The notes: generated by a model from the sequence alone, not told the origin. A stretch of DNA of 64,000 nucleotides from a virus (IMGVR_UViG_3300038530_003085:32001-96000); one strand, 5' to 3'. Positions 110 through 13,963 are shown, counted from the first letter of the stretch. Numbers and translations: made by a program.

Positions 110-198
110 TTGTTCTCTCCATTTTCAAGCGAATAGATCATGTAGATCGCGCCGCCAGCAGCAGCAAACACACTAAGGGTAACCAACAACAAAACCAT
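106..198 (-). CDS. small membrane peptide (30 aa)
   Basis: MVLLLVTLSVFAAAGGAIYMIYSLENGENK; first ORF after promoter module A, with AGGAG/GAGG RBS. Confidence 0.6.
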   Translation of the reverse strand: MVLLLVTLSVFAAAGGAIYMIYSLENGENK

Positions 199-222
199 TT
201 CCTCTCTCCTTTCTATACATAT

Positions 223-278
223 AATATAACATAGAGATTGGTGATATGCAAGAGTTAAGTTGTCAAGAGAATGTCAAG
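223..278 (-). promoter_or_regulatory. composite promoter module A
   Basis: CTTGACATTCTCTTGACA-N9-TTGCAT-N17-TATATT on minus strand. Confidence 0.8.
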
Positions 279-346
279 AGATAAAACATTCCGCCAAACA
301 CAACAGTGGAAATAGCGATCATTACGCACTGCTCCGCATATGTCAT
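263..346 (-). CDS. small membrane peptide (27 aa)
   Basis: MTYAEQCVMIAISTVVFGGMFYLLTFS; ATGA-coupled to the upstream ORF; stop lies inside a TGACA repeat. Confidence 0.5.
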   Translation of the reverse strand: MTYAEQCVMIAISTVVFGGMFYLLTFS

Positions 347-510
347 GATGGATTGACAACCTGAAGCCACTTAACGGGCTCCCAATCAGCGATGTTAACT
401 TCTGGCCAGTAGACTTTGGCTCGCTGGTCGAAGTGGTTAAATCCTACCACCACGCCGATTGGATCCGGTCCACGAGTCGAGGGAAATCTTACAAGATCAC
501 CTAACTTCAT
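343..510 (-). CDS. small SH3/KOW-like paralogue
   Basis: MKLGDLVRF...GVVV...KVYW...WLQVVN; start could be 528. Confidence 0.7.
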   Translation of the reverse strand: MKLGDLVRFPSTRGPDPIGVVVGFNHFDQRAKVYWPEVNIADWEPVKWLQVVNPS

Positions 511-537
511 TTCTTTTTCCTTAATCATTCCAAATAC

Positions 538-939
538 TTACCAGCCTGTAGGGTCATTCGGACGTGACCACAGGTCATGGCCCTTAATCTCTGATGTTGT
601 TTCATCATCAGCGGCAGGAGCCTCAACAGTGAACTCACCGAAGCGCAGGCGTGCATTACGACGGCTTGCGGCCCGGCTGTTTGCCTTCATTTGCTCGCGG
701 GCCTGAATGCCAGCATCGATAAAATCATCCTCAGCGACCGTAAAGCTAAAGCCCTCGTCAATGTCAGTCGGCTCGGTGTCAATAACCCAGTCAGGGTCAT
801 CGTGGCGAGCAACTTGTTCAAGTAGATCGTGCATAAGATCCTGAGACTCAGGGGTTGGCATAATCGCACCATTGAGGGCATCCATAATCATATTGACCTC
901 AGATTCGGTAAGTGTAATGTTCAAAAGTTCGTCATTCAT
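538..939 (-). CDS. acidic hypothetical protein
   Basis: ORF track; AGGAG RBS favours start MNDELL at 939. Confidence 0.7.
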   Translation of the reverse strand: MNDELLNITLTESEVNMIMDALNGAIMPTPESQDLMHDLLEQVARHDDPDWVIDTEPTDIDEGFSFTVAEDDFIDAGIQAREQMKANSRAASRRNARLRFGEFTVEAPAADDETTSEIKGHDLWSRPNDPTGW

Positions 940-950
940 TTTGTTGTCTC

Positions 951-1052
951 CTAACAAGTTGCCCATTGAAAGGCAAGAAAAATAAGGGCGGACCAGCAGG
1001 TCACGTCAGCGATGATAAGAGCGGCCATCATGCCGCGGCGTTGTTGAAGCAT
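951..1052 (-). CDS. small membrane peptide (33 aa)
   Basis: MLQQRRGMMAALIIADVTCWSALIFLAFQWATC; AAGGAG RBS directly after promoter module B. Confidence 0.6.
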   Translation of the reverse strand: MLQQRRGMMAALIIADVTCWSALIFLAFQWATC

Positions 1053-1076
1053 TTGCTTTCTCCTTCTTACTCTTAT

Positions 1077-1132
1077 AATATAGCACCCGCGAGGGTACAA
1101 GTCAATGGTTTTGTTGTCAAGTGGATGTCAAG
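1077..1132 (-). promoter_or_regulatory. composite promoter module B
   Basis: CTTGACATCCACTTGACA-N9-TTGACT-N17-TATATT, extended -10 TG. Confidence 0.85.
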
Positions 1133-2351
1133 AGTCGATTGCAATCACACGTTCGTTTGTTTGAAAGTATGGGCGCGCCGCACAGCGCGCGGTAGTCATC
1201 CACATACGCTGGCACTTACTTGGAACAGGCTTAGGTGCCATCATATCAGTTAGAACAATGTGACCGTCAAACTCTCGTTCGTTAACGTACTTTGTAGGCG
1301 CGTTAAAACAAGTACCACCAGTCAAGACACGCTCGGTCTTACGGCTTTGTCCTTTCTTCCAAACGTAGACCATAGACTCAGCAACCGCGGTGTCAAAAGG
1401 GATCACCGTGAACTCCGCAATCTCTGCTAACTGGTTAAGTTCGGAGAAGAAAGCAGCCAACATAGCATCATCGACAGAACCAGATTGGTCAATAGAAACG
1501 GCTATCTTTGCGTGTCTACGGACTCGCTTGCCCGGATGGACCCGCGGGTAACGTTTGTTGATACGACGCGGTGTAGACCGCTTGTCGGCCCGTTGTGAGG
1601 TCTTTACGAAGTACCGCAGCACCTTGCGCCAGTCAATCTTGGTAGCAATACGGTCCATAATCTCAGAGCGCATACTTGATGAGACGGTGCCCCAGTTACG
1701 CGACTTCTCAGCCTCATCGGCAGCTTTCTTGATAGTGTCCTTAAGACGCTCCTTAGCGATCTCTTGAGTGGTTCCGTCAACGTCACCAAATCCGTCGTGG
1801 TCATCCATAGAATCCATACCACCAAACGGATCACCGTTGCCTTCACCCTCTTGCTTTTCATTCTCTACCATTTCTTTGAGGGCTTCAAGGTACCACTCAT
1901 AGGTCTTGAATGATGGAAGGTCCTTAAACATACCCTCACCGGGGATACAAGCCTTCATAGCTTGACCGCCAACGTCTGGGCCGGGTGTCGCTTCAGAGGG
2001 CAGGTAATCCGAAATGTGGCAGTTAATAGCCAAGTCCATAGCAATATTATCAATCTTCTTGAGACCGTCTACAGGCTTACGGCCAGTAACATGCTCAAAG
2101 ATGAGGTGATAGAACTCGTGCATCAACACACCCTGCATATGCCGATCCGAAAGCTGACCCATAAACTCAGGGTTGTACATCAGTTCAAACTGTGCCGTGG
2201 TGGGGTTAACACGCACACCAGCGGTAGGAATGGCAGTGGTCGAAATCTTGTCGATACGACGGGACAATGCAGCGAAGAAAGGCTCCCGCATAAGCAGCCG
2301 TGCAGTGTGCATATTCAGGTCAAATGGCTTAGTAGTCTTGTCGTCTGACAT
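1128..2351 (-). CDS. DUF2201-type putative metallopeptidase with C-terminal VWA-like domain (MoxR partner)
   Basis: PTAGV, HEFYH zincin motif, NIAMDLAIN; MIDAS-like DQSGS, GGT and LTD in the C-terminal part. Confidence 0.85.
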   Translation of the reverse strand: MSDDKTTKPFDLNMHTARLLMREPFFAALSRRIDKISTTAIPTAGVRVNPTTAQFELMYNPEFMGQLSDRHMQGVLMHEFYHLIFEHVTGRKPVDGLKKIDNIAMDLAINCHISDYLPSEATPGPDVGGQAMKACIPGEGMFKDLPSFKTYEWYLEALKEMVENEKQEGEGNGDPFGGMDSMDDHDGFGDVDGTTQEIAKERLKDTIKKAADEAEKSRNWGTVSSSMRSEIMDRIATKIDWRKVLRYFVKTSQRADKRSTPRRINKRYPRVHPGKRVRRHAKIAVSIDQSGSVDDAMLAAFFSELNQLAEIAEFTVIPFDTAVAESMVYVWKKGQSRKTERVLTGGTCFNAPTKYVNEREFDGHIVLTDMMAPKPVPSKCQRMWMTTARCAARPYFQTNERVIAIDS

Positions 2352-2372
2352 GTTCTATCTCCTTACATATAT

Positions 2373-2428
2373 AATATAGCACCGTGAGGCACCAAGGTCA
2401 AGGTTTAAGTTGTCAAGGAAATGTCAAG
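2373..2428 (-). promoter_or_regulatory. composite promoter module C
   Basis: CTTGACATTTCCTTGACA-N9-TTGACC-N17-TATATT. Confidence 0.85.
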
Positions 2429-2639
2429 GGATTTTATACAAAGCTCTGAATGCAGTTTCGGTTATCCAGCCGCAGCTACCGTCAGATACATATACTTTGA
2501 ACTTGTATCTCCGGTTGACAATATCACCATATCTGGATCTGGCAGTCTCTTCTTTGCCAAGAACAATGCCCGGCAAACCTTCGTATTTCTTAATAACAAG
2601 ATCTCCGATGGCTATTTTATCAATCCACATTTGAGACAA
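2424..2639 (-). CDS. small SH3/KOW-like paralogue
   Basis: IAIGDLVIK...PGIVLG...FKVY. Confidence 0.65.
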   Translation of the reverse strand: MSQMWIDKIAIGDLVIKKYEGLPGIVLGKEETARSRYGDIVNRRYKFKVYVSDGSCGWITETAFRALYKIP

Positions 2640-2853
2640 CGATTAGATCCTCTTCGTGAAAGTCCATATTCTCTTCAGTCTTTAGCCAGCGAACTTTATA
2701 GCGTTTCCTTCGGTCTATCGGCTTATAAATCTCAACCACCATACCGATACCGTGGGCCCTTTTAAAAGCCATACCAAGGCCGCCGGGGCCTGATAGTTTT
2801 ACCAGATCCCCGATTTTAGGCGGTGATAGTCGTGGCGGAATGCGATGGCGCAT
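2620..2853 (-). CDS. small SH3/KOW-like paralogue
   Basis: KIGDLVKL...GMVVEI...YKVRW...EEDLIVVS. Confidence 0.7.
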   Translation of the reverse strand: MRHRIPPRLSPPKIGDLVKLSGPGGLGMAFKRAHGIGMVVEIYKPIDRRKRYKVRWLKTEENMDFHEEDLIVVSNVD

Positions 2854-3941
2854 TAGTCTTCAGTATTGCCTCCCAAGATTTCAACAAGGTGGTCGCTCAC
2901 ACGCTTACCATCGTGAGTGGTGGCCTTGTGCAGAGCCACAACGTTCTGCATGTTATCAGCATCTCCAAGGACGGTCCAAAGCTTCATAGCGATCTCGGAT
3001 GGAAGACGGACAAAGTATTCAGCCAAGTTAGTAACTTGAGTTTCGCTAAGCTGCTCGATGAAGATTTCTGAGGCTTCAAACTTCTCAATCATCGCGGCGT
3101 GGTCATTGATACCCCAGTTATCAACCTTCTCAAAGTCGCCATCATCAATGATGTCCTCAATGGTCACTTGCCACTCGTACTTCTCAACGAAGTCACGGAG
3201 AGTAACAGCGGCCTCGAAGCCAACAAAAGCAGTGGCGAGGTTGAACAGCAGATCACGATCGCCATCTTCGGCGAACACACCAGCAGGCTCAGCGGTACCG
3301 CAGAAGCGGTCCCAAGAGCGACGAGAAGGATAGACCTTGTTGGGCTCAAAGTCACCCTCGTGTTCCAAGTGCTTGCGGTTGTGGTTAATGAAGTCCCAAA
3401 CAATAGATGGGACGCGTCCATGGGCCCACTTAAGCCAATCTTCAATGGTAGGCTCGACATCGAACACAGTCCAGCGGTCAAGCTCTGCAGGGTCCATCTC
3501 GCCCACTTGGTATTGAGCACCGTGCTCGCCACCATTGACAGCAGCGACAATCAAAGTGTCCTCGTGCAAGTGCCAACCGTTCAGCTTGCGGCTATCGGTA
3601 AGCTCGAAAAGACCTTGACGGACTTCCATAGTAGCACGGTCAACCTCATCCAAGAAGAGAAGTACACCTTGCTCACAAGCAGTAACAAGCCAGTCAGGGG
3701 CATTCCAAGTGGTGGCCTTGCGACCATTGATAGCGGTATCAGCCGTATCAGGAAGACCAAGCAGGTCACCCTCGGTCATCTGTGATGCGCGGCGCTCAAC
3801 GACAGGCAGACCGCGCTCCTCTGCAATCTGGTAGACGACTTGTGATTTACCGATACCGTGACGGCCGCGAAGCAAGACGGGAAGTCGAGCATCGAGGATG
3901 AACGGAGCGGTAGTGGTGAATGTTGCGAAGTCGATAGCCAT
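2853..3941 (-). CDS. MoxR-like AAA+ ATPase
   Basis: Walker A GRHGIGKS, Walker B LFLDEVDR, sensor AAVN, DPAELDR, PSRRSW. Confidence 0.9.
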   Translation of the reverse strand: MAIDFATFTTTAPFILDARLPVLLRGRHGIGKSQVVYQIAEERGLPVVERRASQMTEGDLLGLPDTADTAINGRKATTWNAPDWLVTACEQGVLLFLDEVDRATMEVRQGLFELTDSRKLNGWHLHEDTLIVAAVNGGEHGAQYQVGEMDPAELDRWTVFDVEPTIEDWLKWAHGRVPSIVWDFINHNRKHLEHEGDFEPNKVYPSRRSWDRFCGTAEPAGVFAEDGDRDLLFNLATAFVGFEAAVTLRDFVEKYEWQVTIEDIIDDGDFEKVDNWGINDHAAMIEKFEASEIFIEQLSETQVTNLAEYFVRLPSEIAMKLWTVLGDADNMQNVVALHKATTHDGKRVSDHLVEILGGNTED

Positions 3942-3991
3942 GTTGTGTTCTCCAGTTTGGGAGGTTGTTTAGTTCTTTGCCTTACTCTATA

Positions 3992-4047
3992 AATATAGCA
4001 CCGAATGGTGTTTCGGTCAAGTATTTTATTGTCAGAGAAATGTCAAG
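3992..4047 (-). promoter_or_regulatory. composite promoter module D
   Basis: CTTGACATTTCTCTGACA-N9-TTGACC-N17-TATATT. Confidence 0.85.
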
Positions 4048-4861
4048 AGATCATATTTGGATAATCATCAGTCAAGCCAAGTTTGATAATAATATCTCTC
4101 GCTTGCTCATTTGGGAAACGAAACTGAGTCCGTCGTTTTTCGTAGCCTTTCCGGGTTGTGAAAAACTGCTTGTAAGCGAACTTAACAGTTTTCTCATCTT
4201 CAAAGTCGAGCCAGCCCTCTGGCATATTGTATGTGGTGGTCACGCTCATCAAATCAGCGGGAACATTACCACTGTCGATATGTTCTCGCGATTCCCGCAA
4301 AAGTCCAACAATAGTGGTTGAATCACCATAACCGGGCTTTGTAATATCTTTAATGTTTTTGTGGATTGCTTTGAGTTCACTATTGCCCCAGTGGCAGCCC
4401 TCCCACTCAAAACCCGTAATGTAGCGAAGAGTTGGCTTGTAACCATATCCCTTATCTTCGCCAAGGTATTGAAACGTGCGAACTGGCACGATTGAGCCCA
4501 CACCGACACCATTGTTTACCAACTGCTCCCAGACTGCTTTTCTGGTAAACTTTGAAATCTCAGCGAATACTTTTTTGTCGCTCTTCAGAAAGCGGCAAGT
4601 CCGGCGAGTGTGACCTTGCCGACCACAGTAACCACAGTGGACGTTGGTTGTCCTCTTCTTCTTGGGGAGATCTTCGCCAGTGACAATGTTCAAACCAGTC
4701 CGGGCCTCATACTCTTGACGGAATGTATCAGCACGGTAATCGCCTTGCTCAATAGCCCTCTCGTAACCTTGCTTCAGGTGCTCGTTCTTTTTCGGGCAGG
4801 TGCGAGAGTTATGACCTGTACGGTAACAGTATGAGCAGCGGACGGTACCATTGTATGACAT
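4043..4861 (-). CDS. protein with two CCHC zinc knuckles
   Basis: CSYCYRTGHNSRTC and CGYCGRQGHTRRTC (C-x2-C-x4-H-x4-C). Confidence 0.8.
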   Translation of the reverse strand: MSYNGTVRCSYCYRTGHNSRTCPKKNEHLKQGYERAIEQGDYRADTFRQEYEARTGLNIVTGEDLPKKKRTTNVHCGYCGRQGHTRRTCRFLKSDKKVFAEISKFTRKAVWEQLVNNGVGVGSIVPVRTFQYLGEDKGYGYKPTLRYITGFEWEGCHWGNSELKAIHKNIKDITKPGYGDSTTIVGLLRESREHIDSGNVPADLMSVTTTYNMPEGWLDFEDEKTVKFAYKQFFTTRKGYEKRRTQFRFPNEQARDIIIKLGLTDDYPNMIS

Positions 4862-4882
4862 TTGTTCTCTCCTTACCCTTAT

Positions 4883-4937
4883 AATATAACAACATCAGGG
4901 CCATCGTCAATGCGAAAGTTGTCAAGCAGATGTCAAG
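4883..4937 (-). promoter_or_regulatory. composite promoter module E
   Basis: CTTGACATCTGCTTGACA-N9-TTGACG-N16-TATATT. Confidence 0.85.
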
Positions 4938-5080
4938 AGTTCCAACAAATCACTGCGTGCTGGTAATGGATCGGCATAATCGTGCCACTTAACAAGTAAA
5001 TCACCATTGCCGACAAACTTTCCAACCTCGACAACGATACCAACGGAACCTTTCCAGCGGACCAAATCACCCACTTTCAT
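4922..5080 (-). CDS. small SH3/KOW-like paralogue
   Basis: MKVGDLVRW...GIVVEV...LVKW...LLELLTS; start trimmed to the ATG at 5080. Confidence 0.7.
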   Translation of the reverse strand: MKVGDLVRWKGSVGIVVEVGKFVGNGDLLVKWHDYADPLPARSDLLELLTSA

Positions 5081-5402
5081 GCATTTTCTCCGTGATGTGC
5101 CGACACTTTCGTCGCCAGCCAAACCCGGCACACGTGCAACCCCATACGTGGCCGTCATAGGTCACTGTATAGCTTTTGCCAGTGCTGCCTTGGACTTCCC
5201 AAGACTGAACATTAGAAGGCGTCTCAGGCGCGCTCCTTGGCTTGTAAATCATAACGTGATCAATAGAATCAAGTGTTGCAGTCTCGTCAACTGGCAGCCA
5301 AAACTGACCGGAAACCGCCCACTTCTGACCGTTTCCATCAGTGTAGAGCATTGGGCGCATATTAACAATAACAGGTAGTTCCACAATAACCTCTAAAGAC
5401 AA
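5067..5402 (-). CDS. SWIM zinc-finger protein
   Basis: VQGSTGKSYTV...CTC...KCRH; start uncertain. Confidence 0.8.
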   Translation of the reverse strand: MSLEVIVELPVIVNMRPMLYTDGNGQKWAVSGQFWLPVDETATLDSIDHVMIYKPRSAPETPSNVQSWEVQGSTGKSYTVTYDGHVWGCTCAGFGWRRKCRHITEKMHESG

Positions 5403-5563
5403 GCAGGAGTTTTAACAAAAAGACGATACCCGTCTCTGGGCTCAAAGTTGTTTTCGCGGATAAAAGTGCTTCGAGCCTCTTCTTTAGTCTCGGCGACAAT
5501 GGAAGCCAAAGTCTCGTAAGTCTTTGTTTTAAAACAGTAAAGTTTGATATCAAATGATGTCAT
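5393..5563 (-). CDS. hypothetical protein (56 aa)
   Basis: Hand translation MTSFDIKLYCFKTKTYETL...KTPACL; GGAGG RBS; fills the gap. Confidence 0.6.
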   Translation of the reverse strand: MTSFDIKLYCFKTKTYETLASIVAETKEEARSTFIRENNFEPRDGYRLFVKTPACL

Positions 5564-5764
5564 TTATGCCTCCGCCGGGATAGTAGCTGCAACACTAAGC
5601 GTCATAAAAGTTTCAACTTCTTCTTTCGATACTTTTGGATCGTTCAATGAACCCTGAAGCATCAGGGCAGTAATAGTCGCATCCAAACCAATCTTAGTTC
5701 TTTCAATCTGTGTAAGACCTTTTGACCAGTCTTCGGTGCGGATAAGTGGGATATCAAATGTCAT
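5564..5764 (-). CDS. hypothetical protein
   Basis: First ORF after module F, AAGGAG RBS. Confidence 0.7.
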   Translation of the reverse strand: MTFDIPLIRTEDWSKGLTQIERTKIGLDATITALMLQGSLNDPKVSKEEVETFMTLSVAATIPAEA

Positions 5765-5785
5765 GTTGTTTCTCCTTACAAATAT

Positions 5786-5840
5786 AATATAACCTTTTAA
5801 GGGCGCGCGTCAATGAATGTAATGTCAAGCGAATGTCAAG
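5786..5840 (-). promoter_or_regulatory. composite promoter module F
   Basis: CTTGACATTCGCTTGACA-N9-TTGACG-N16-TATATT. Confidence 0.85.
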
Positions 5841-6321
5841 GCTTCTTTTCATACTTTTGCCTGTGCTCTTGTTTCATAGCCAAATAAGGCGCAAACTCGC
5901 GGGCCTCTTTCCAACAGGCATAAAATATTCGAGCAGATTGTGCTTTTTCGCAGGTTAGCGCATCAGGCTCCTGCGGAATAATACTGCCGTCATCATTATA
6001 CTTTCGTCCATCGCGATGATTTGCATAACGTCGAGCGCGTGTAAATCCCATATGCAGGAACTTTTTAGCCATATCGGCGCCAACAAAATCTCCCTCGTTA
6101 ACGTAAGTATAGAACATCATTAGGATATTTTGACTTGATACTTGCGCCTCGCGAACAGTCTTGAAACGCCAGTGCGCGCAGATATCAGACTTGTAAGGCT
6201 CACATAGCAACACACCCTGTTGGCCGCGGCCAATCCTGTACATTTCAGGGTGTTTCCTATAGTCAATATCGGGGTTCCACTTTTCAAAATATGATTTATC
6301 AACTTGCTTTCTTGCCATCAC
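5836..6321 (-). CDS. DUF4385-family protein
   Basis: YRIGRGQQGVLLCEPYKS...HWRFKT...DFVGADMAKKFLHMGFTRARRYANH recognised as this family. Confidence 0.8.
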   Translation of the reverse strand: MMARKQVDKSYFEKWNPDIDYRKHPEMYRIGRGQQGVLLCEPYKSDICAHWRFKTVREAQVSSQNILMMFYTYVNEGDFVGADMAKKFLHMGFTRARRYANHRDGRKYNDDGSIIPQEPDALTCEKAQSARIFYACWKEAREFAPYLAMKQEHRQKYEKKP

Positions 6322-6584
6322 TTCTTCTTTGGAAATCTTCCTTGATTACCCATACCATCATAATCAATAAAATCGCTATCAGGTTCAGTATAATTGAGTT
6401 TATTATTCTCGTCAAGTTTTTTAACTAAATGATCTGATAGCTCTTCCAATTCATTAATAACAAAAGCATACTCTCGTAGATTACCATTGCGTTGCAAATG
6501 CAATGCTTGCTCTTGAAGTCTAGTAATTTTCTTTTTGATACTATTAATTTCTCTGTTGAAGAGAAAATCTTTAATAAATTTCAT
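6318..6584 (-). CDS. small helical protein (DUF6435/Lacal_2735-like)
   Basis: LQEQALHLQRNGNLREYA pattern. Confidence 0.5.
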   Translation of the reverse strand: MKFIKDFLFNREINSIKKKITRLQEQALHLQRNGNLREYAFVINELEELSDHLVKKLDENNKLNYTEPDSDFIDYDGMGNQGRFPKKK

Positions 6585-6916
6585 TTCTTTCTCCTTGGTA
6601 AGTATGGTCTGATACCATAAGCAAAAATATAGTAACCGGCGTCAAATAAACTTCTCACAACAGGGAGACGAGAGATACAAACTGCCCTGTTAAAGCCCAT
6701 TTTTTCATACATCAGCCTGAACGTTTCAGGCCCTTTGGTTGCCTTTTGGTCAAACCAGCCAATCATTTCTTTTTCAAAGTCAGCGACGTTGCCATCAAAG
6801 TCTTCGGCACTAATGTCAACAAATTCGATACCACATGCTTCAGCCCTTTCACGGATCGTGTTAATCTCTAGCGAGCAAACATAACAACTTTCATCATAGT
6901 ATACTTTGTCAGACAT
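6581..6916 (-). CDS. DCC-family thiol-disulfide oxidoreductase (DUF393-like)
   Basis: N-terminal VYYDESCYVC (DxxCxxC), IEFVDIS, late Y..FA..R. Confidence 0.8.
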   Translation of the reverse strand: MSDKVYYDESCYVCSLEINTIRERAEACGIEFVDISAEDFDGNVADFEKEMIGWFDQKATKGPETFRLMYEKMGFNRAVCISRLPVVRSLFDAGYYIFAYGIRPYLPRRKK

Positions 6917-7011
6917 TAGTTATCCATATTGTCAAGAATGTAAAGCGAAAAAGTGAATCCAAGCACAATAAACGCCACTACACAATTAATAAAAACTTGA
7001 TACATTTCCAT
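6916..7011 (-). CDS. small membrane peptide (31 aa)
   Basis: MEMYQVFINCVVAFIVLGFTFSLYILDNMDN; GGGGG RBS. Confidence 0.55.
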   Translation of the reverse strand: MEMYQVFINCVVAFIVLGFTFSLYILDNMDN

Positions 7012-7019
7012 AGTTCCCC

Positions 7020-7208
7020 CTATCTTTCACTTATAACTGTTAGTAAATCCACGTTGTTCCAGTCCCTTGGGCTTTCATCTGACCACTGGTCAAACCAATG
7101 AACTTGAGCCTCGTTGAGTTTTGATTTTTTTCTGAATTTAATTATCACACCGTGACCAATCCATCCAGTCGGATCATATGTAACTCTCACCAAATCACCG
7201 ATCTTCAT
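7020..7208 (-). CDS. small SH3/KOW-like paralogue
   Basis: MKIGDLVRV...GVII...VHWFD...LLTVISE. Confidence 0.75.
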   Translation of the reverse strand: MKIGDLVRVTYDPTGWIGHGVIIKFRKKSKLNEAQVHWFDQWSDESPRDWNNVDLLTVISER

Positions 7209-7371
7209 CGATCACTTCCAATCTTTTAGCTTGATCATTAGTATAATGCCATTGTCCATTAACACCAAACCATTTAACAACAACGTAGTCAGGTGTAATT
7301 TTCTCTACCACACCATTAGCAACTTCATATTTCCACATAGGCTGCATTCTTACTTTGTCGCCAACTTTCAT
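7195..7371 (-). CDS. small SH3/KOW-like paralogue (58 aa, not in ORF track)
   Basis: MKVGDKVRM...GVVEKI...VVVKWF...LEVIDEDR. Confidence 0.7.
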   Translation of the reverse strand: MKVGDKVRMQPMWKYEVANGVVEKITPDYVVVKWFGVNGQWHYTNDQAKRLEVIDEDR

Positions 7372-7658
7372 TTTACAAACTTCAAATCCTTTCTAAAAAA
7401 GTAAGAAGTTTGGTATGGTCTTGCTGCTCTCATATTGCCATTATTCCATCTTCCTGCCGGTCCATCCGGCATCCAACGAACAAAATAATACTTTTTTTCG
7501 TTATCCGAAGTGTGATTGGTAATATGTGGATTGTCTTCAACATTAATAATCATACCAATAATATTCTTTTTCTCCATCCAAATCTTGTTACGCCACTTCC
7601 ACATTGGAGCAGTCTGCAGAACATACGAGGATAAAGTAACCAAATCACCGACTTTCAC
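7368..7658 (-). CDS. small SH3/KOW-like paralogue
   Basis: GTG start (M)KVGDLVTL...GMII...YFVRW...DLKFVK. Confidence 0.7.
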   Translation of the reverse strand: MKVGDLVTLSSYVLQTAPMWKWRNKIWMEKKNIIGMIINVEDNPHITNHTSDNEKKYYFVRWMPDGPAGRWNNGNMRAARPYQTSYFFRKDLKFVK

Positions 7659-7780
7659 ATCACGCTCCAAATACTGTAGCCAATCACTGCTAACGCAACA
7701 GTAATACCAAGCCAGCTATACACCAGCAAGAGACGCTCTGCCCTTTCAATATCATCTTTAAATGTTCTATTTTCCTTCAC
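7655..7780 (-). CDS. small membrane peptide (41 aa)
   Basis: GTG start, MKENRTFKDDIERAERLLLVYSWLGITVALAVIGYSIWSVM; fills gap between two paralogues. Confidence 0.55.
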   Translation of the reverse strand: MKENRTFKDDIERAERLLLVYSWLGITVALAVIGYSIWSVM

Positions 7781-7949
7781 TTAGCACCTTCAACATTTTT
7801 TTAAGCTCAAAAGTTATTTCACCATCAAACCATTGAACCTTGGCAACTGACCTGCCATGATCAATCCTCGTTTCTTTGGGTCCAATAACCGTGATGATTC
7901 CTCGATGACTAGAGTCATGACGACTGCAAACCAAATCCCCTACATTCAC
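7767..7949 (-). CDS. small SH3/KOW-like paralogue
   Basis: (M)NVGDLVCS...GIITVI...AKVQWFDG...LKVLSE; GTGA overlap with upstream stop. Confidence 0.7.
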   Translation of the reverse strand: MNVGDLVCSRHDSSHRGIITVIGPKETRIDHGRSVAKVQWFDGEITFELKKMLKVLSEGK

Positions 7950-8212
7950 GGGCGCACCATAGACTGCTTGAGAGCCTCGCAAGTTTCATCACTGATGCAG
8001 TTGGTTACAGCCCTAAAGATGGCGTCTTGGTTTTCAATCATAATCTCCAGATCGCCGGTCATTTTTTCCGTAAGATAAATCATATTATCAAGGCTTTCGG
8101 CAGATCTATCCAGTGATTCAGATACACTATCCCGCGCTAGCGGGATCGCGGTTTCTACGTTTTGTGGGTCATTGCAGCCAATGATGATGGGTAATACGAT
8201 AATGTTTAGCAT
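7946..8212 (-). CDS. putative lipoprotein
   Basis: Hydrophobic N-terminus ending IIGC; AGGAG RBS. Confidence 0.55.
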   Translation of the reverse strand: MLNIIVLPIIIGCNDPQNVETAIPLARDSVSESLDRSAESLDNMIYLTEKMTGDLEIMIENQDAIFRAVTNCISDETCEALKQSMVRP

Positions 8213-8236
8213 TTTGTCTCCTATTTGCTTGTATTG

Positions 8237-8515
8237 TTATTGAGCGCCGTTGAACACACGATCAGCGAAGCGCTTTGCATTGCGAAGGTTTGGCAAGTCG
8301 TCTAGGTCTTTAACTTGTGTAGAGTCTTCGCTCTTCATATGTTGGATAGACTCGCGCATATACTTGCGAAGAAGCTTAATGAACTCAATCTTGCCAAACT
8401 CCTCCTTGTGATACGTAACATTGCGTGAGTACTTTGTGTGCATAATACGCACCATCTTCAATGCGTCGTTGATGCCTTCGGGGTCATCGGAATCAATTAC
8501 AATTGTCATTTTCAT
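8237..8515 (-). CDS. hypothetical protein
   Basis: Start moved to MKMTIV, 6 nt downstream of a consensus -10 (probably leaderless). Confidence 0.65.
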   Translation of the reverse strand: MKMTIVIDSDDPEGINDALKMVRIMHTKYSRNVTYHKEEFGKIEFIKLLRKYMRESIQHMKSEDSTQVKDLDDLPNLRNAKRFADRVFNGAQ

Positions 8516-8521
8516 AGAACT

Positions 8522-8550
8522 ATTATAAGCCCTTGCTTGCGCCTTGTCAA
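8522..8550 (-). promoter_or_regulatory. sigma70-type promoter
   Basis: TTGACA-N17-TATAAT, perfect consensus. Confidence 0.8.
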
Positions 8551-8604
8551 GCGTTGTGTTTGTAAAAAGGAAAAATTTACCGAAAAAAATCGCGCGATCG
8601 GCGC

Positions 8605-8913
8605 TCAATCACTCTCTAACATCACCACTCCGGGGGGCGCGCTGCCTGAAACGACGCCCCCGTGCTTCGCTATGACTGTGGTGACAAGCCAAACTGGGAC
8701 ATACGGATAAACTGTGCCCGTTGGGTCTGTGTCATCCTCGCAATACTTCTCAATCAATGGCTCGACTCTGTTTGGGAACCCAATCTCGACTGATTCATAT
8801 ACCTCGGCCGTGTCCGACTGCGGGTAGCTGTAGGAATACGCACTCGCTTGAACGGACATACTAAAGCCGCTCTTGCAAACTATTCTTTGGTAGAATGGCC
8901 TTTCCCTACTCAC
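8605..8913 (-). CDS. conserved phage hypothetical protein
   Basis: CKSGFSMSVQAS...YESVEIGFP...TVYPYVP...KHGG. Confidence 0.7.
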   Translation of the reverse strand: MSRERPFYQRIVCKSGFSMSVQASAYSYSYPQSDTAEVYESVEIGFPNRVEPLIEKYCEDDTDPTGTVYPYVPVWLVTTVIAKHGGVVSGSAPPGVVMLESD

Positions 8914-8916
8914 AAA

Positions 8917-9150
8917 TCAATCCTCAACTAGTTCTAGAAACATCTCGTGAAACTTTAAAACTTTACCGCCGGCAAAAGCAACATTATAAAATGCAGTGTA
9001 TGAACGACTCTCATCGATTTCTTCAGGAACCGTCTCCATCACAAGGCCCAGCCTGTGGCTTGGGATTGCGACATCATGAGTTGAGTCCTTGACACGCACA
9101 AGGTTACCGGGCTTAAACTTTGACAAATCTAATATCTCGTTTCTCCTCAT
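8917..9150 (-). CDS. small SH3/KOW-like paralogue
   Basis: FKPGNLVRV...GLVME...YNVAF...FLELVE; start uncertain. Confidence 0.65.
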   Translation of the reverse strand: MRRNEILDLSKFKPGNLVRVKDSTHDVAIPSHRLGLVMETVPEEIDESRSYTAFYNVAFAGGKVLKFHEMFLELVED

Positions 9151-9159
9151 AAGTAGTCC

Positions 9160-9336
9160 CTAAACTCTAACAACCGAATGTGAAACATCATTAACGATGC
9201 TAGAGTAATGTATAACATTTTTTGCTCCATCATTCCAATGAATCGTAATGTAGCCTTTAGACTCCTCGATAACAACTCCCATCCTCTTGTCAAAGGATCT
9301 ATAAATAATCAAGTCTCCTACTTTAATAGTTTCCAT
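9160..9336 (-). CDS. small SH3/KOW-like paralogue
   Basis: IKVGDLIIY...GVVIE...IHWNDG. Confidence 0.7.
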   Translation of the reverse strand: METIKVGDLIIYRSFDKRMGVVIEESKGYITIHWNDGAKNVIHYSSIVNDVSHSVVRV

Positions 9337-9514
9337 CAATAATCTCAAGTACGCCCGTATCGTACCACTCCGTTTCCCCGTTTATAAAATGAACTTTAGC
9401 AGAAAAAGTAATGTGACCTGTTTTAGAAATCTCAAGAATAACACCAAGATTGACCTCCTCATCTGCATAAGGATGAGGTACAAACTTGTACCTTACGAGA
9501 TCACCCACCTTCAC
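9323..9514 (-). CDS. small SH3/KOW-like paralogue
   Basis: GGAGGT then GTG (M)KVGDLVRY...GVILEI...AKVHF...LEIID. Confidence 0.75.
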   Translation of the reverse strand: MKVGDLVRYKFVPHPYADEEVNLGVILEISKTGHITFSAKVHFINGETEWYDTGVLEIIDGNY

Positions 9515-9683
9515 TGATAACCTCCAACCAAGCTTTTGGCTCCCAATCAATCTTGCCGGAACCTCCTATCCATCGAACACCAACTAGTGCGGTTCGACCG
9601 TAGCCTCTCTTGTTAACACTCACAACCACACCGACAAAGCCAGTTTGGTGCGTGTGCATTCTTACAAGACTTCCAATCTTCAT
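9501..9683 (-). CDS. small SH3/KOW-like paralogue
   Basis: MKIGSLVRM...GVVVSV...VRW...WLEVISE. Confidence 0.75.
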   Translation of the reverse strand: MKIGSLVRMHTHQTGFVGVVVSVNKRGYGRTALVGVRWIGGSGKIDWEPKAWLEVISEGG

Positions 9684-9719
9684 ACAAATAACTTAACATT
9701 GATCAGAACAAAAAGCAAG

Positions 9720-9917
9720 TCAAGAGCCTGTGATAATTATAACATCATCGACTCTTTCATTAATTAAGCACTTATGTCCGTTGATCCAGACGATCCAAAT
9801 TTCCTCATCCCTCTCAAAACCTTTGCTAATGTAAGAATCAATAATAATACCCGGATTTGACCAATCATCATCCCCGAAAGACTTGGGCTTAAAAGAAATC
9901 AAATCACCTACTTTCAC
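9720..9917 (-). CDS. small SH3/KOW-like paralogue
   Basis: MKVGDLISF...PGIIID...IVWING. Confidence 0.7.
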   Translation of the reverse strand: MKVGDLISFKPKSFGDDDWSNPGIIIDSYISKGFERDEEIWIVWINGHKCLINERVDDVIIITGS

Positions 9918-10119
9918 TTATGACCTCAATTAAATCTATTTCAGGCATAAGAATGTGCTCCTTCATATCATCAAAACAATACATTTTAAGCACCGAAGTT
10001 CTGTCATCGGAAGGAACTTCAACAATCACGCCGATGAACGGATCACCCCATCCCTCAATCGATTGATCGTATGGGTTCTTCATAGCATATTGCAGCTTAA
10101 TCAGATCCCCTACTTTTAT
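9904..10119 (-). CDS. small SH3/KOW-like paralogue with ATA at the expected start (or pseudogene)
   Basis: Open frame IKVGDLIKL...GVIVEV...LIEVISESR; no in-frame ATG/GTG/TTG upstream of the motif. Confidence 0.55.
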   Translation of the reverse strand: MKVGDLIKLQYAMKNPYDQSIEGWGDPFIGVIVEVPSDDRTSVLKMYCFDDMKEHILMPEIDLIEVISESR

Positions 10120-10267
10120 TGATAATATCGTAATCGAAACTCTCCATAATTCTGTCTTGTTTGATAAGTTTACGAGACAGATTGATAATTTGTGACCTAT
10201 GAAACTTGATCATACGATGGTGAGATTCAATACATTCCTTAATCATATTTTCCTGTTGTTCAGTCAT
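10097..10267 (-). CDS. hypothetical protein (56 aa)
   Basis: Hand translation MTEQQENMIKECIESHHRMIKFHR...; fills the gap. Confidence 0.55.
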   Translation of the reverse strand: MTEQQENMIKECIESHHRMIKFHRSQIINLSRKLIKQDRIMESFDYDIINKSRGSD

Positions 10268-10499
10268 TTAATTCTTTTTGATCCTCCAAATTACACACAA
10301 TAACGGTATCTGAGTCTTCATGAATCTTAATCACATAAAACTTTTGCCCTTCCGTAATTTCACAAGGAAATGCGTTAATTGGCATCACTGCTTGTGCTGG
10401 TCCGCCATTTAAGGCAGGATTTGCACTAAGCTCAACGGAGGCAAAATGTGAATCAAAAGAGTCAATAACACCCACAAGCACAAAAGTTTTTAAAATCAT
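10260..10499 (-). CDS. DUF3006-like small protein
   Basis: VIDSFDSHFASVEL...FPCEITEG pattern. Confidence 0.5.
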   Translation of the reverse strand: MILKTFVLVGVIDSFDSHFASVELSANPALNGGPAQAVMPINAFPCEITEGQKFYVIKIHEDSDTVIVCNLEDQKELND

Positions 10500-10503
10500 A
10501 ATA

Positions 10504-10725
10504 TTAGTCCTCCATATCTTCGTATATTTTTAAGTAAGACGCCCACTCTTCAGTGATTATACCAGTGTGCCAACGTATTTTAAATCGTGGGGTATGTGAA
10601 TATGAGTGCTCAATGGCCTCCACAATAATCCCCGGTGGTCTGCGCTGACCTAAGCCTCTATATCTTTCCCACTTAAAAAGTGCTGACGGCTCAGGCACAT
10701 ATGTAACCAGATCACCGACTTTCAT
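10504..10725 (-). CDS. small SH3/KOW-like paralogue
   Basis: MKVGDLVTY...PGIIVE...FKIRW...YLKIYE. Confidence 0.75.
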   Translation of the reverse strand: MKVGDLVTYVPEPSALFKWERYRGLGQRRPPGIIVEAIEHSYSHTPRFKIRWHTGIITEEWASYLKIYEDMED

Positions 10726-10898
10726 TTTAGCACATCATTGATTCTATCTTTCAAGCGCTGATCTTGGGTTTCATTAGCGATTTCTGCAAGAAAATCTTCA
10801 AGTTGAGACAGGCGTTTTTGTTGCTCGTGCAATGGATTAACAACAGAAATACCTTTATCCTCTAACTTGGAGTGGTAATAAGAATCATGATATGACAT
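10722..10898 (-). CDS. hypothetical protein (58 aa)
   Basis: MSYHDSYYHSKLEDK...INDVLK; GAGG RBS; ATGA-coupled to the next gene. Confidence 0.6.
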   Translation of the reverse strand: MSYHDSYYHSKLEDKGISVVNPLHEQQKRLSQLEDFLAEIANETQDQRLKDRINDVLK

Positions 10899-10938
10899 TG
10901 CAAGCCTCGATTATAAATAGTTAGTAAATTACATAAAG

Positions 10939-11014
10939 TGGTACGGGTGGCAGGATTTGAACCTGCGACCAATCGCATATAAGACGACTGCTCTTACCGC
11001 TGAGCTACACCCGC
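10939..11014 (-). tRNA. tRNA-Ile(UAU)
   Basis: GCGGGTG acceptor, anticodon arm GTCGT-CT TAT AT-GCGAT, GGTTCAAATCC T-arm, encoded CCA. Confidence 0.9.
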
Positions 11015-11021
11015 AAAGAAA

Positions 11022-11098
11022 TGGCACACCCTGTAGGGCTCGAACCTACGACCCTCGGCTTAGAAGGCCGATGCTCTATCCAACTGAGCTAAGGGTGC
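11022..11098 (-). tRNA. tRNA-Arg(UCU)
   Basis: Anticodon arm TCGGC-CT TCT AA-GCCGA, GGTTCGAGCCC, CCA end. Confidence 0.95.
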
Positions 11099-11107
11099 TT
11101 AATACCT

Positions 11108-11521
11108 CTATAGCATAACTTTTGCTTGCTTCTTTGTCAAGTACTTTTCAGACAAAAGTGAATACTTTACGAAAGGTGAAATATTCTCGTATTGAAAAGA
11201 CATTTCATCCTCCATTTCAATGCGATCATCAAAACGAAACCCAACAACAAACACTTTACCAATCGATTCACTTTCGGGGTCAGTGACAGCCCAAAAAGTG
11301 TGCTTCATCCCACGCTCCCTGTGCATACAGGTAACTTTAGTATTCTTTGGAAGATGATCGAGATGCCACAAGTGTGACATTTTGCCATCACGATCTCGCC
11401 AGTAATGTGGAATCGTGTAAGCTTTGTCCATTGTTTCAAACTTTGCAAGGTTAACAAAAGGAAGATGTGAGTCATCCCTAAGAAATGCAACGGTGCCTTT
11501 GCGTACTTTAGCTTGCTTCAT
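11108..11521 (-). CDS. hypothetical protein
   Basis: GGAGGAG RBS favours start MKQAKV. Confidence 0.7.
   Translation of the reverse strand: MKQAKVRKGTVAFLRDDSHLPFVNLAKFETMDKAYTIPHYWRDRDGKMSHLWHLDHLPKNTKVTCMHRERGMKHTFWAVTDPESESIGKVFVVGFRFDDRIEMEDEMSFQYENISPFVKYSLLSEKYLTKKQAKVML
11112..11140 (-). promoter_or_regulatory. sigma70-type promoter for tRNA-Arg/tRNA-Ile
   Basis: TTGACA-N17-TATGCT just upstream of tRNA-Arg. Confidence 0.6.
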
Positions 11522-11714
11522 TGCCAGACTCCTCCGGTGAAATACAATCCTCAAAGTAAACAACAATATTGCCCGGGCAGATTGCTAGTGGCTCTTGCCC
11601 CTCCTCGGCGTGATTATTAATATAATCATACCAAGCATCATTCTTATCGTGTGAGGAAACAAAAGTATAACTTCCATTCCCACTCTGACTGCTATAAATA
11701 ATTGTGTAGATCAT
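11508..11714 (-). CDS. hypothetical protein
   Basis: ORF track, GGAGG RBS. Confidence 0.65.
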   Translation of the reverse strand: MIYTIIYSSQSGNGSYTFVSSHDKNDAWYDYINNHAEEGQEPLAICPGNIVVYFEDCISPEESGNEAS

Positions 11715-11987
11715 TTAATCCTCCGTAATAAGTCTACCTGCTGAATCTCTACCCTCAAGTTCCCACTGTAATTTTTTTAGCTCTGCAAGCCTTAAACAAG
11801 AATTCCATACTTTGGTTGCATAAACGAGGCAGTCACTATTCTGACTGTAGAATGCATCTAGTTTATCATTCTTGACTTTACTTTGCAACTCTTTGGTAGC
11901 ATCTTCTAAAGATTTGAGATTCATTTCTAAAGTCTTTAAACAAAGATTTTGTGCTTGCCACAGTTTATTTGTTTTGAATATATCCAC
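11715..11987 (-). CDS. hypothetical protein
   Basis: ORF track, tight packing. Confidence 0.6.
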   Translation of the reverse strand: MDIFKTNKLWQAQNLCLKTLEMNLKSLEDATKELQSKVKNDKLDAFYSQNSDCLVYATKVWNSCLRLAELKKLQWELEGRDSAGRLITED

Positions 11988-12117
11988 TTGTTTCTTCGCT
12001 TACTTTTTTAGTTGAGCCCAACTTAAAGATAAACCACCGTAAGCCGACAACAAAAAAAGTTGCCGTGCTTACAAATGATGCCATCCCCAAGAACTCATAA
12101 AGGTTGCCTGTCATATT

Positions 12118-12303
12118 CTACTCCCGATAGTAATTTGCCAAGCCCATAAGTGTTGGGGCCCAAAGACCGACAAAGATTCCAAACCTTTCAGCGTGTGCCG
12201 GATCTGCACTTGATGCAACCCAGACATAAATGCTGCAGGCGACGGAAATCAGAGAGGCTGCAAAGAATGCCACAGCCACATTATTGTCTCTTGTAGTTAA
12301 CAT
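12118..12303 (-). CDS. small two-helix membrane protein
   Basis: Hydrophobic; ERFGIFVGLWAPTLMGL motif; GGGAG RBS. Confidence 0.7.
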   Translation of the reverse strand: MLTTRDNNVAVAFFAASLISVACSIYVWVASSADPAHAERFGIFVGLWAPTLMGLANYYRE

Positions 12304-12328
12304 ATTTTCTCCCTTTTGTTATGTTAAA

Positions 12329-12405
12329 TGGTGGGCCCTGTCGGACTCGAACCGACGACTCTCCCGTTATGAGCGGGATGCTCTAACCAACTGAACTAAA
12401 GGCCC
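12329..12405 (-). tRNA. tRNA with CAU anticodon, Ile2-like (elongator Met not excluded)
   Basis: GGGCCTT acceptor, CCCG-CT CAT AA-CGGG, GGTTCGAGTCC, ACCA; overall resemblance to bacterial tRNA-Ile2. Confidence 0.85.
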
Positions 12406-12407
12406 AA

Positions 12408-12560
12408 AAGTGCCCTTGCCTATCCTCCATCCGTCGAACAATCATGATAGCTGCAGCTATTAATCTCTTCAACCAGACTTCTGAACTTCTCGCAAGGGTG
12501 TGGTGATCAATGTGCATCCAGCTTGCTTAACGGACTTGAACCGATTTGTGATTCCACAGT
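12408..12560 (-). ncRNA. candidate structured RNA between tRNA-Leu and tRNA-CAU
   Basis: TGTGG..CCACA stem enclosing T-arm-like CGG-TTCAAGT-CCG; CCCTTGC..GCAAGGG stem enclosing palindrome ATAGCTGCAGCTAT. Confidence 0.4.
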
Positions 12561-12571
12561 AAAATAAAAGA

Positions 12572-12657
12572 TGGTAGCTGATGCGAGACTCGAACTCGCA
12601 AGCCCAAAGGGCGACAGATTTTAAGTCTGTTGTGTATACCAATTCCACCAATCAGCC
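12572..12657 (-). tRNA. tRNA-Leu(UAA)
   Basis: ACAGA-CT TAA AA-TCTGT, long variable arm GCCCTTTGGGC, GTTCGAGTC, ACCA. Confidence 0.95.
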
Positions 12658-12665
12658 ATAAATAA

Positions 12666-12694
12666 ATTATAATAGGTTAGCGACACGCTGTCAA
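12666..12694 (-). promoter_or_regulatory. sigma70-type promoter for tRNA-Leu cluster
   Basis: TTGACA-N17-TATAAT ending 8 nt before the tRNA. Confidence 0.85.
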
Positions 12695-12701
12695 GTAGTT
12701 T

Positions 12702-12938
12702 TTATAATTTTATTAGTTCGGATTCAATAAAATATCGTTTTGTTCCGTCAAGACATAAAACAGTGTAGACATAATCTTGAAAGTATTCCATTTCATAGTC
12801 GATATCAATGATGACACCAGTGTGGGTTGTAGTAAAATAATCATCAGGATCATCGTGCCAATAATAATATTCAATAATATCATAAAAGCCCTTAACGAGA
12901 TTGCCTATCTTATATTTTGGTGGTATATCAAATCCCAT
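12702..12938 (-). CDS. small SH3/KOW-like paralogue (acidic)
   Basis: YKIGNLVKG...GVIIDI...YTVLCLDG...ESELIKL. Confidence 0.7.
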   Translation of the reverse strand: MGFDIPPKYKIGNLVKGFYDIIEYYYWHDDPDDYFTTTHTGVIIDIDYEMEYFQDYVYTVLCLDGTKRYFIESELIKL

Positions 12939-12959
12939 ACATTATTTAGTATGAGCCAC

Positions 12960-13586
12960 CTACTTTCTTTTTAACTTAATAAACCGCTCTTCAATAATCA
13001 CCGGGATTGTGCTACCGATCGGTAGAATCTTATACATTTTTGCACCCTTGGCAGCAGAACGAATAACATCTAGCACTCGAATGATAAGGCCACCTTTGGC
13101 GCGAAAAGCCTTAACAGCTTGATCTTGGCTACTCCAAGTTGTGGGTGCCGAAATGCCAATATTCTTTGCATAACAGTTCGCGCGAGCAGCCACAAGAGTG
13201 CCGGCAGGATATTTAGGTTCAGCGTGGTGTGTATCTAAAACTCTCTGAGCATACTTATTACTACGCATTTTCGTATATGCCCGCATATCAGGCACCAAGC
13301 CTTTGAGAATATCGCGAGTTAACTCAGAAAAGTAGCCGGTGGTGTTATAATACTGCGCAAGCACAAGTGCATCCGACTTATGCTCTTTAATGTATACGCT
13401 CTCCCACTCATCGTGAAGGGATTGAGCCTCCTCGCCGTTACGAAGGATAACTTTGGTAGCAGTCGTAACTTGTTTCTCTGAGAGTGTACGACCCTTCTCA
13501 AGCTGACCTAAAATCGATTCAAGAAATCCACGGTCCCACCCTGTACATACTGGACGACTAAGAGCCATTTCAATTTCTTCTTTCAT
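12960..13586 (-). CDS. hypothetical protein with C-terminal SH3/KOW-like domain
   Basis: N-terminal WDRGFLESI...LSEKQ; C-terminal KYPAGTLV...GLII...YKIL...IEERFIK. Confidence 0.7.
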   Translation of the reverse strand: MKEEIEMALSRPVCTGWDRGFLESILGQLEKGRTLSEKQVTTATKVILRNGEEAQSLHDEWESVYIKEHKSDALVLAQYYNTTGYFSELTRDILKGLVPDMRAYTKMRSNKYAQRVLDTHHAEPKYPAGTLVAARANCYAKNIGISAPTTWSSQDQAVKAFRAKGGLIIRVLDVIRSAAKGAKMYKILPIGSTIPVIIEERFIKLKRK

Positions 13587-13604
13587 GTTCCCTCCAACAC
13601 TTAT

Positions 13605-13658
13605 AATATATAGGATACATACTAGAAGGTCAAGAATTATTTGTCAGCTAAATGTCAG
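13605..13658 (-). promoter_or_regulatory. composite promoter module G
   Basis: CTGACATTTAGCTGACA-N8-TTGACC-N17-TATATT. Confidence 0.8.
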
Positions 13659-13963
13659 TAATCATCAACTTCAGGGGACAGTACGATTGCGTCGATGTAT
13701 CCGTGTGGAACTTTAACAACTTGACATCGCCAACCACCCCATTTAGGGATTACATCAAATAGTGGAAAGTCGGGACACTGTGTGATTATGGTCTCACTCG
13801 GAACATCAACCTCAACAATTACCTCAAGAACAGAACCCCCATCATCAGAACCAGCGACAACTTCGTACCTACCACCGTAGTAATTGGATATTTCAAGTGT
13901 CAGGGAGTTGATAGCATTTTGTTTTGATAATTTTTCGCCATCATTAAAAAATATATTAGCCAT
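13655..13963 (-). CDS. hypothetical protein
   Basis: Start MANIFF, coupled to the upstream ORF. Confidence 0.65.
   Translation of the reverse strand: MANIFFNDGEKLSKQNAINSLTLEISNYYGGRYEVVAGSDDGGSVLEVIVEVDVPSETIITQCPDFPLFDVIPKWGGWRCQVVKVPHGYIDAIVLSPEVDDY

Follow-up and report, generated by a model that had tools for sequence, protein, structure and literature searches.

A repeated, probably sigma70-type promoter module with a conserved double box at the junctions of variable gene units in an uncultured virus

Why should one promoter-like sequence stand at seven gene boundaries of the same viral genome, and what are the two short repeats that head it for? We addressed this question in IMGVR_UViG_3300038530_003085:32001-96000, a stretch of 64,000 nucleotides (the window) that covers bases 32001–96000 of a 187,393-bp IMG/VR virus, rated complete and with 38.6% G+C. 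An earlier note on this DNA had described the repeat as a composite promoter with two YTGACA boxes (here box A and box B), took it for a regulator site and saw in it the junction of a cassette-array system whose boxes cap incoming open reading frames (ORFs). Comparison with fetched relatives (L and G numbers; G000 is the genome under study) makes it likely that a sigma70-type early promoter, operator boxes, tight gene packing and recombining cassettes together explain the module.

Architecture and conservation of the double-box module

A search for YTGACA-N5-YTGACA returned seven matches in the window, all on the minus strand, against 0.02 expected in shuffled sequence; none of 100 shuffles reached seven. 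Pattern search and alignment agree on these seven modules, and the alignment also confirmed the −35 element 15 bp past the second box (14 in one copy) and the spacer of 16–17 nt that had been reported. The window coordinates were correct, whereas the strand needed correction: the modules and all genes lie on the minus strand. The whole genome carries nine copies, all on the coding (minus) strand within genome 30.6–45.7 kb. Two of them, at genome 30593 and 31383, lie just before the window; the one at 31383 begins GTGACA. The 11-bp repeat period is exact in 9/9 copies, and when box spacings from 0 to 15 were scanned across the 187-kb genome no other spacing gave more than one match.

An intact −35 element follows boxes A and B at 26 and 15 bp (25 bp for box A in the copy at 13642) and reads TTGAC in seven of the nine copies. 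Read as 7-nt repeats, the boxes are two CTTGACA at about −61 to −45. Nine A/T-rich nucleotides separate box B from the −35, the spacer between −35 and −10 is G+C-rich, and a TG precedes the −10 in most copies. In the alignment of the window copies, TGACA of both boxes, TTG of the −35 and the −10 TATATT are invariant. TATATT is followed by a short leader with an AAGGAG ribosome site and then by ATG. The module core, from box A through the −10, measures about 55 bp, and the distance from box A to the start codon is about 75–105 bp. The modules of the window, with lengths in amino acids (aa), and two box-less promoters are as follows.

223–278, minus: module 1; boxes 261–277, −35 TTGCAT 246–251, −10 TATATT 223–228; the upstream ORF (27 aa, 263–346, minus) ends at the box B TGA; a hydrophobic ORF of 30 aa (106–198, minus) comes first downstream
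1077–1132, minus: module 2; boxes 1115–1131, −35 TTGACT 1100–1105, TGC-TATATT 1077–1082; the upstream DUF2201/VWA gene (1128–2351, minus) ends at the box A TGA; spacer hairpin at 1083–1098, scored terminator-like
2373–2428, minus: module 3; boxes 2411–2427, −35 TTGACC, TGC-TATATT; drives the DUF2201/VWA gene; the upstream ORF (71 aa, 2424–2639, minus) ends at the box A TGA; terminator-like spacer hairpin at 2377–2394
3992–4047, minus: module 4; boxes 4030–4046 (the second CTGACA), −35 TTGACC, TGC-TATATT; drives the MoxR-like AAA ATPase gene (2853–3941, minus); the upstream gene for a 272-aa double CCHC-knuckle protein (4043–4861, minus) ends at the box A TGA; terminator-like spacer hairpin at 4000–4017
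4883–4937, minus: module 5; boxes 4920–4936, −35 TTGACG, TGT-TATATT; the upstream MKVGDLV SH3-like gene (ATG at 5080, end at 4922) runs through box A, which encodes Leu-Thr in its frame, and ends at the TGA of box B
5786–5840, minus: module 6; boxes 5823–5839, −35 TTGACG, TATATT; heads the unit g27-g45-g11-SH3; the upstream DUF4385 gene (5836–6321, minus) ends at the box A TGA
13605–13658, minus: module 7; both boxes CTGACA (13642–13658), −35 TTGACC, −10 TATATT; drives a gene for a 208-aa ORFan and then the tRNA cluster; the upstream ORF (113 aa, 13655–13996, minus) ends at the box A TGA
12666–12694, minus: box-less perfect-consensus sigma70 promoter, TTGACA-17-TATAAT, ahead of tRNA-Leu
8522–8550, minus: second box-less perfect-consensus promoter, with a terminator-like hairpin just upstream (8594–8612)

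The near-consensus −35, the 16–17 nt spacer, the frequent extended −10 TG and the short AAGGAG leader point to initiation of the sigma70 type, and the reading of the module as a composite sigma70-type promoter is thus supported at the level of sequence. A promoter scan picked out the modules, and TTGAC-N17-19-TATAWT gave 21 matches in the genome on the coding strand vs. one on the opposite strand, a bias indicating that the matches are largely real promoters. Their mismatches to the double box are bimodal: seven promoters have 0–2, and 14 have at least four, which equals the random level. Among the promoters of relatives, 332 have 0–2 mismatches and 37 at least six. The distance from box A to the −35 is 26 bp (273 promoters) or 25 bp (26 promoters). 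The double box sets its promoters apart as a class of their own. The 14 box-less matches, which include the two perfect-consensus promoters at 12666–12694 and 8522–8550, bear out the claim that other promoters lack the double box; that none of them uses TATATT did not hold, since box-less TTGACA-N16-17-TATATT candidates occur at genome 186873, 178229, 87248 and 51951, the last two with no clear upstream gene end. Likewise, TATATT is invariant in the copies of this genome but not across the family, as TATAAT replaces it in the orthologous g6 promoter of most relatives. The T4 late motif TATAAATA, which was sought to fix temporal classes, showed no coding-strand enrichment.

Further upstream boxes were considered as well, and a third or fourth box proved rare (7 of 353 modules). 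Relatives G005 (C1:94544-94583) and G006 (C1:83328-83462) contain two to three double boxes within 40–135 bp, and these clusters may be multi-dimer arrays.

The double box is widespread among relatives. A pattern scan of IMG/VR found the module in at least 118 stretches, with at least 357 unique modules; as the family loci were fetched by the exact boxes, some of the family statistics are biased thereby. Complete relatives of 184–205 kb carry double boxes in 10/10 cases: G008 has a single one, the other nine have 7–14 each. Only two of the 95 matches in these genomes are on the opposite strand, the boxes lie in one region of 12–20 kb, and a control pattern read backwards gave 0–1 matches. The module cluster sits at arbitrary coordinates in the terminal-repeat contigs of IMG/VR, so its placement relative to the physical genome ends is uninformative. 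The regions upstream of g3, g4, g6 and g12 were fetched through their genes instead of the pattern, which avoids the retrieval bias, and their alignments show the boxes at least 90% conserved with variable interleaved positions. Unrelated modules share only 36–38% identity after box B and in the −35/−10 spacer. The boxes keep TGACA throughout and vary in their first base (T, C or G); the true −35 keeps TTG and varies in the remainder. This difference argues for a reader other than sigma region 4.

Stop codons and exchange of units at the modules

As the earlier note had stated, the upstream ORF stops at a TGA inside a box in 7/7 window copies. The positions 263, 1128, 2424, 4043, 4922, 5836 and 13655 were all confirmed as true minus-strand ORF ends, five in box A and two in box B. 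Genome-wide, 9/9 stops fall in boxes (box A 6, box B 3), which is the high end of a family habit. Among 330 unique modules, for which the longest upstream ORF was taken, the stop lies within a box in 63%, distributed as follows.

Box A TGA: 51%
Box B TGA: 12%
Elsewhere inside the module: 15%
1–15 nt before box A: 18%
Further upstream (−60 to −16): 4%
No upstream ORF of at least 40 codons ending nearby: 2%

These data do not favor the view that boxes in two frames cap incoming ORFs. The two frames of the box TGAs follow from the repeat period itself (11 mod 3 = 2). A three-frame stop design was also considered and rejected, as just 37% of modules have a stop in the third frame ahead of the −35. 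Moreover, box-less promoters of the same genome have the preceding gene end between −12 and +8 relative to the −35, once at the TGA within the −35 TTGACT. Because box-less promoters abut upstream stops equally, we take a stop in a box as a sign of tight gene packing and not of a designed cap. Over the 330 modules the use of the box A frame is about double the chance expectation, an excess that fits selection for short C-terminal tails.

Comparison of gene order among the relatives showed a set of anchors, namely the CCHC gene (g12), the MoxR-like AAA gene (g4), the DUF2201/VWA gene (g3), g5 and g6, with a variable number of module-bounded units between them. In the closest relative, L090 (84–93% identity), two insertions are bounded by module copies, and the flanking alignments overlap there by 66 nt and 21 nt of module sequence. 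The unit g27-g45-g11-SH3, here located between modules at genome 37823 and 36920, is translocated in L090 and L032, where it directly follows the VWA gene. The junction modules of L090 are chimeric, and their inter-box bases go with the downstream gene. Module-bounded insertions, a translocation and chimeric modules thus support the proposed gain and loss of promoter-plus-gene units at the modules. Across 17 relatives, module intervals make up 5% of the region and hold 56 of 138 homology breakpoints (41%), and 23 of 25 downstream gene clusters stand behind at least two unrelated upstream contexts after these were collapsed to independent ones. In close pairs that have only the upstream gene in common, similarity is 0.82 in the boxes and 0.56 in the −35/−10 spacer; pairs with only the downstream gene in common give a mixed pattern. 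The breakpoints are therefore enriched at the modules as anticipated, but the crossovers are not fixed inside the boxes: they are scattered from box A to the start codon, indicative of homologous recombination between repeats, not of a site-specific event.

The genes driven by the modules are mostly ORFans and match no Pfam or PHROG family except MoxR-like AAA, DUF2201/VWA and DUF4385. We propose that the module most probably acts as a compact intergenic cassette heading a block of such genes in a hyperplastic, presumably early region. Host RNA polymerase of the sigma70 type would start about 7 nt after TATATT, and the two CTTGACA repeats, by their conservation and fixed spacing, would constitute a class-specific operator for a factor binding tandem repeats one helical turn apart. 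The upstream ORF would run up to or into the first promoter element, which contains a TGA and, under tight packing, would usually supply the stop codon. Homologous recombination between copies, to which the exchange among relatives points, would then insert, delete and move promoter-plus-gene units, as with PeSL elements.

PeSLs (promoter-early stem-loop cassettes), described from the T4-type coliphages RB49 and phi1, combine a strong early promoter of the sigma70-like type with a stem-loop and, upstream, an AT-rich tract (Arbiol et al., 2010; PMC2839356). Each starts at the stop codon of the gene before it; they stand beside ORFans in hyperplastic regions and yield indels and mini-circles when they recombine (PMC2839356). 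The modules are likewise repeated, strong sigma70-like promoters with a 16–17 nt spacer in an ORFan-rich hyperplastic region, they begin at an upstream stop codon, and units are inserted, deleted and replaced by recombination between copies; the phage, like the PeSL phages, has T4-type capsid and portal genes. It differs from them in its DnaE-type replication genes, and the modules carry two strictly spaced CTTGACA boxes in place of the AT-rich tract upstream of the −35. The analogy drawn earlier is apt for function, the shuffling at modules, but fails for the defining stem-loop and AT-rich tract. With this tract replaced and the stem-loop not constant, the module is a variant of the PeSL kind rather than a member by defining features. 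A further parallel is the host-takeover module of the Bacillus phage SPO1, in which strong early promoters are clustered in front of small genes. It resembles the present region in its dense consensus-type early promoters, strong ribosome sites and small genes of unknown function; to our knowledge, neither an upstream double box nor a shuffling of promoter cassettes has been established for SPO1.

Several points weigh against this explanation. Terminator-like spacer hairpins occur in 42 of 288 modules family-wide, which exceeds the 20.1 ± 3.4 found in shuffles, so that a stem-loop is enriched but present in only 15%, unlike in PeSLs. Adjacent genes stay together in 16% of cases with a module between them vs. 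27% without, a statistic that is noisy and depends on unreliable calling of small ORFs. Many differences in gene order lie at module-free junctions, which means that modules are not the sole breakpoints. The breakpoint enrichment may stem in part from faster drift of non-coding DNA, BLAST extension through common motifs blurs the exact crossover points, and the retrieval by exact boxes acts on some of the family figures. Finally, the early timing is a presumption.

Candidate readers of the boxes

A role of the boxes as a regulator site, as the earlier note had it, is plausible in view of the 11-bp repeat, the fixed distance to the −35 and the conservation of the boxes while their neighbors drift. 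The comparison with OmpR/PhoB-type sites held for the period (11 bp exact, nine copies) and not for the position and orientation of Pho boxes. One candidate reader is a host response regulator of the OmpR/PhoB family. The boxes could then be a Pho box on the opposite strand, TGTCAAG-nAAA-TGTCAAG, and the regulon would respond to host phosphate or to some other two-component signal; we regard this as unlikely. The E. coli Pho box has the consensus CTGTCAT-AAAA-CTGTCAT, and the complementary strand of the modules resembles it in the TGTCA core, the 7 + 4 layout with two repeats one helical turn (11 bp) apart and the A-rich spacer. The flanking bases depart from this consensus, and the sequence is unrelated to the cyanobacterial Pho box. 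A canonical Pho box replaces the −35 and has its repeats on the non-template strand, whereas here TGTCA is read on the template strand, the reverse of the canonical orientation, and the boxes at −61 to −45 stand beside a good −35. No driven gene is phosphate-related. An antisense Pho-type promoter was rejected too, as conservation upstream of box A ends after about 3 nt. There is a precedent for such regulation in the host PhoB that binds promoters of cyanophage S-PM2d, but the same study warns that the prediction of Pho boxes in phages is unreliable (PMC10976474). No Trans_reg_C (OmpR-type) domain was found among the phage proteins, which leaves room for a host factor.

The boxes might also work without a separate reader, as extra −35-like docking or UP-like elements that boost the capture of RNA polymerase at very strong early promoters. 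They match the sigma70 −35 consensus and lie in the UP-element zone, and the 9 nt after box B are A/T-rich. Yet the boxes keep TGACA where the true −35 keeps TTG, the sites of the C-terminal domain of the polymerase alpha subunit are A/T-rich, and perfect-consensus promoters in this part of the genome lack boxes. Neither box has a −10 at a usable distance, and a second promoter with a box as its −35 was discarded for the same reason. We consider this explanation improbable. The phage itself encodes an 83-aa protein (window 31736–31987, minus) with a cysteine-rich N-terminal half and a helix-turn-helix of the sigma70 region 4.2 type. Its Pfam Sigma70_r4 match (40.8 bits) is above the curated cut-off, its best match among solved structures is region 4 of E. 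coli RpoD, and its gene is present in 9/10 complete relatives. Given that the boxes equal the −35 consensus, this protein might read them and switch the cassette promoters on or off. In the alignment with RpoD, however, two of the four base-contacting residues differ (R584 to F and E585 to A), and the protein does not co-vary with the boxes, on which ground it was ranked low as their reader: G002 has eight double boxes and no copy detectable by protein or hidden Markov model (HMM) search, and G008 has the gene and only one box. We find this role very improbable. A free-standing region 4 is unusual in itself, and the protein might bind DNA or serve as a decoy for factors directed at sigma region 4. 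The last alternative, which we likewise find very improbable, is the dedicated cassette array, in which the boxes would serve site-specific recombination and be designed to cap incoming ORFs. It would account for the nine upstream ORFs that stop in a box, for the gain, loss and movement of units at modules and for the twofold use of the box A frame, and arrays of small genes that differ unit by unit between relatives recall integron cassettes. Unlike in integrons, each unit has its own promoter and the junctions are not at a fixed point. Neither a Phage_integrase (tyrosine integrase) domain was found in the genome, serine recombinases not having been searched, nor an attC-like inverted repeat, the module repeats being direct and not inverted. 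These results, together with the spread of crossovers over the module, a third frame that is usually open, the box stops in only 63% of modules and the like packing of box-less promoters, speak against the cassette-array system of the earlier note.

Genomic setting and meaning for the clade

The phage that carries these modules is an uncultured marine myovirus distantly related to T4. Coding in the 187-kb genome is practically all on the minus strand. Family matches to Gp23 and Gp20 identify T4-type capsid and portal genes, and the polymerase is of the DnaE type (Pol III alpha). The Gp23 capsid gene lies in a 604-aa open frame, where the family match is broken into two. T4-like structural genes and non-T4 replication genes form a mosaic (genome 105864–107417; window 40225–43659). 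We found no close cultured relatives; for DnaE and AAA, the best matches reach about 30% identity. The single match in bacterial genomes, L127 (NZIV01000080.1), is a 12.9-kb phage contig of the same family, syntenic with genome 27–34 kb and binned in a metagenome-assembled genome of Candidatus Neomarinimicrobiota, a placement that may hint weakly at the host or be an artefact of binning. A scan of the genome against Rfam detected tRNAs only, and a literature search found no paper describing the double-box design in the library that it covered.

A G+C island (47–49% vs. 38.6% for the genome) occupies genome 30001–37500, i.e., window 1–5500 and the 2 kb before it, and contains eight of the nine modules as well as the MoxR-like AAA, DUF2201/VWA and CCHC genes. 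The MoxR-like AAA gene (2853–3941) and the DUF2201 metallopeptidase/VWA gene (1128–2351) have a module each, and the pair is conserved in relatives; N4-like phages have this pair too, under the name gp24-like. The 272-aa protein of 4043–4861 (minus) bears two retroviral-type CCHC zinc knuckles (C-X2-C-X4-H-X4-C) near its N-terminus, has no Pfam or PHROG family and belongs to cluster g12, with 29–30 copies kept in the hyperplastic region of relatives. Paralogues of 50–80 aa that start with MKVGDLV (window 343–528 and 4922–5080; L001 2293–2814) form the biggest protein cluster of the fetched loci, with 301 members. Their genes are often in tandem, and the copy number varies between close relatives at module-free points. 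Tiny hydrophobic ORFs flank module 1 on either side (106–198, 30 aa; 263–346, 27 aa), and another small ORF starts about 24 nt past the −10 of module 2 (near 1052); these may encode small membrane peptides.

A bolder idea, which we put forward tentatively and hold to be less probable than not by a wide measure, is that the double box is a portable regulon tag, i.e., an operator for one host sensor (e.g., PhoB-like) or an unrecognised phage factor that travels with the promoter. If so, a gene captured between modules would join one condition-dependent early programme, clade-wide in abundant marine T4-related phages. The current view of phage gene regulation would stay unchanged unless the reader of the boxes is a host sensor. 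On the explanation that we prefer, a recombining sigma70-type promoter with an operator, the promoter-mediated cassette shuffling of enteric T4-type phages would also operate in a distant uncultured marine clade, with a strictly conserved operator added. This operator would provide a 17-bp probe for the factor controlling the variable early genes and a metagenome signature for the hyperplastic regions of this phage clade, and the modules would represent a natural set of strong, compact cassettes of promoter plus ribosome site.

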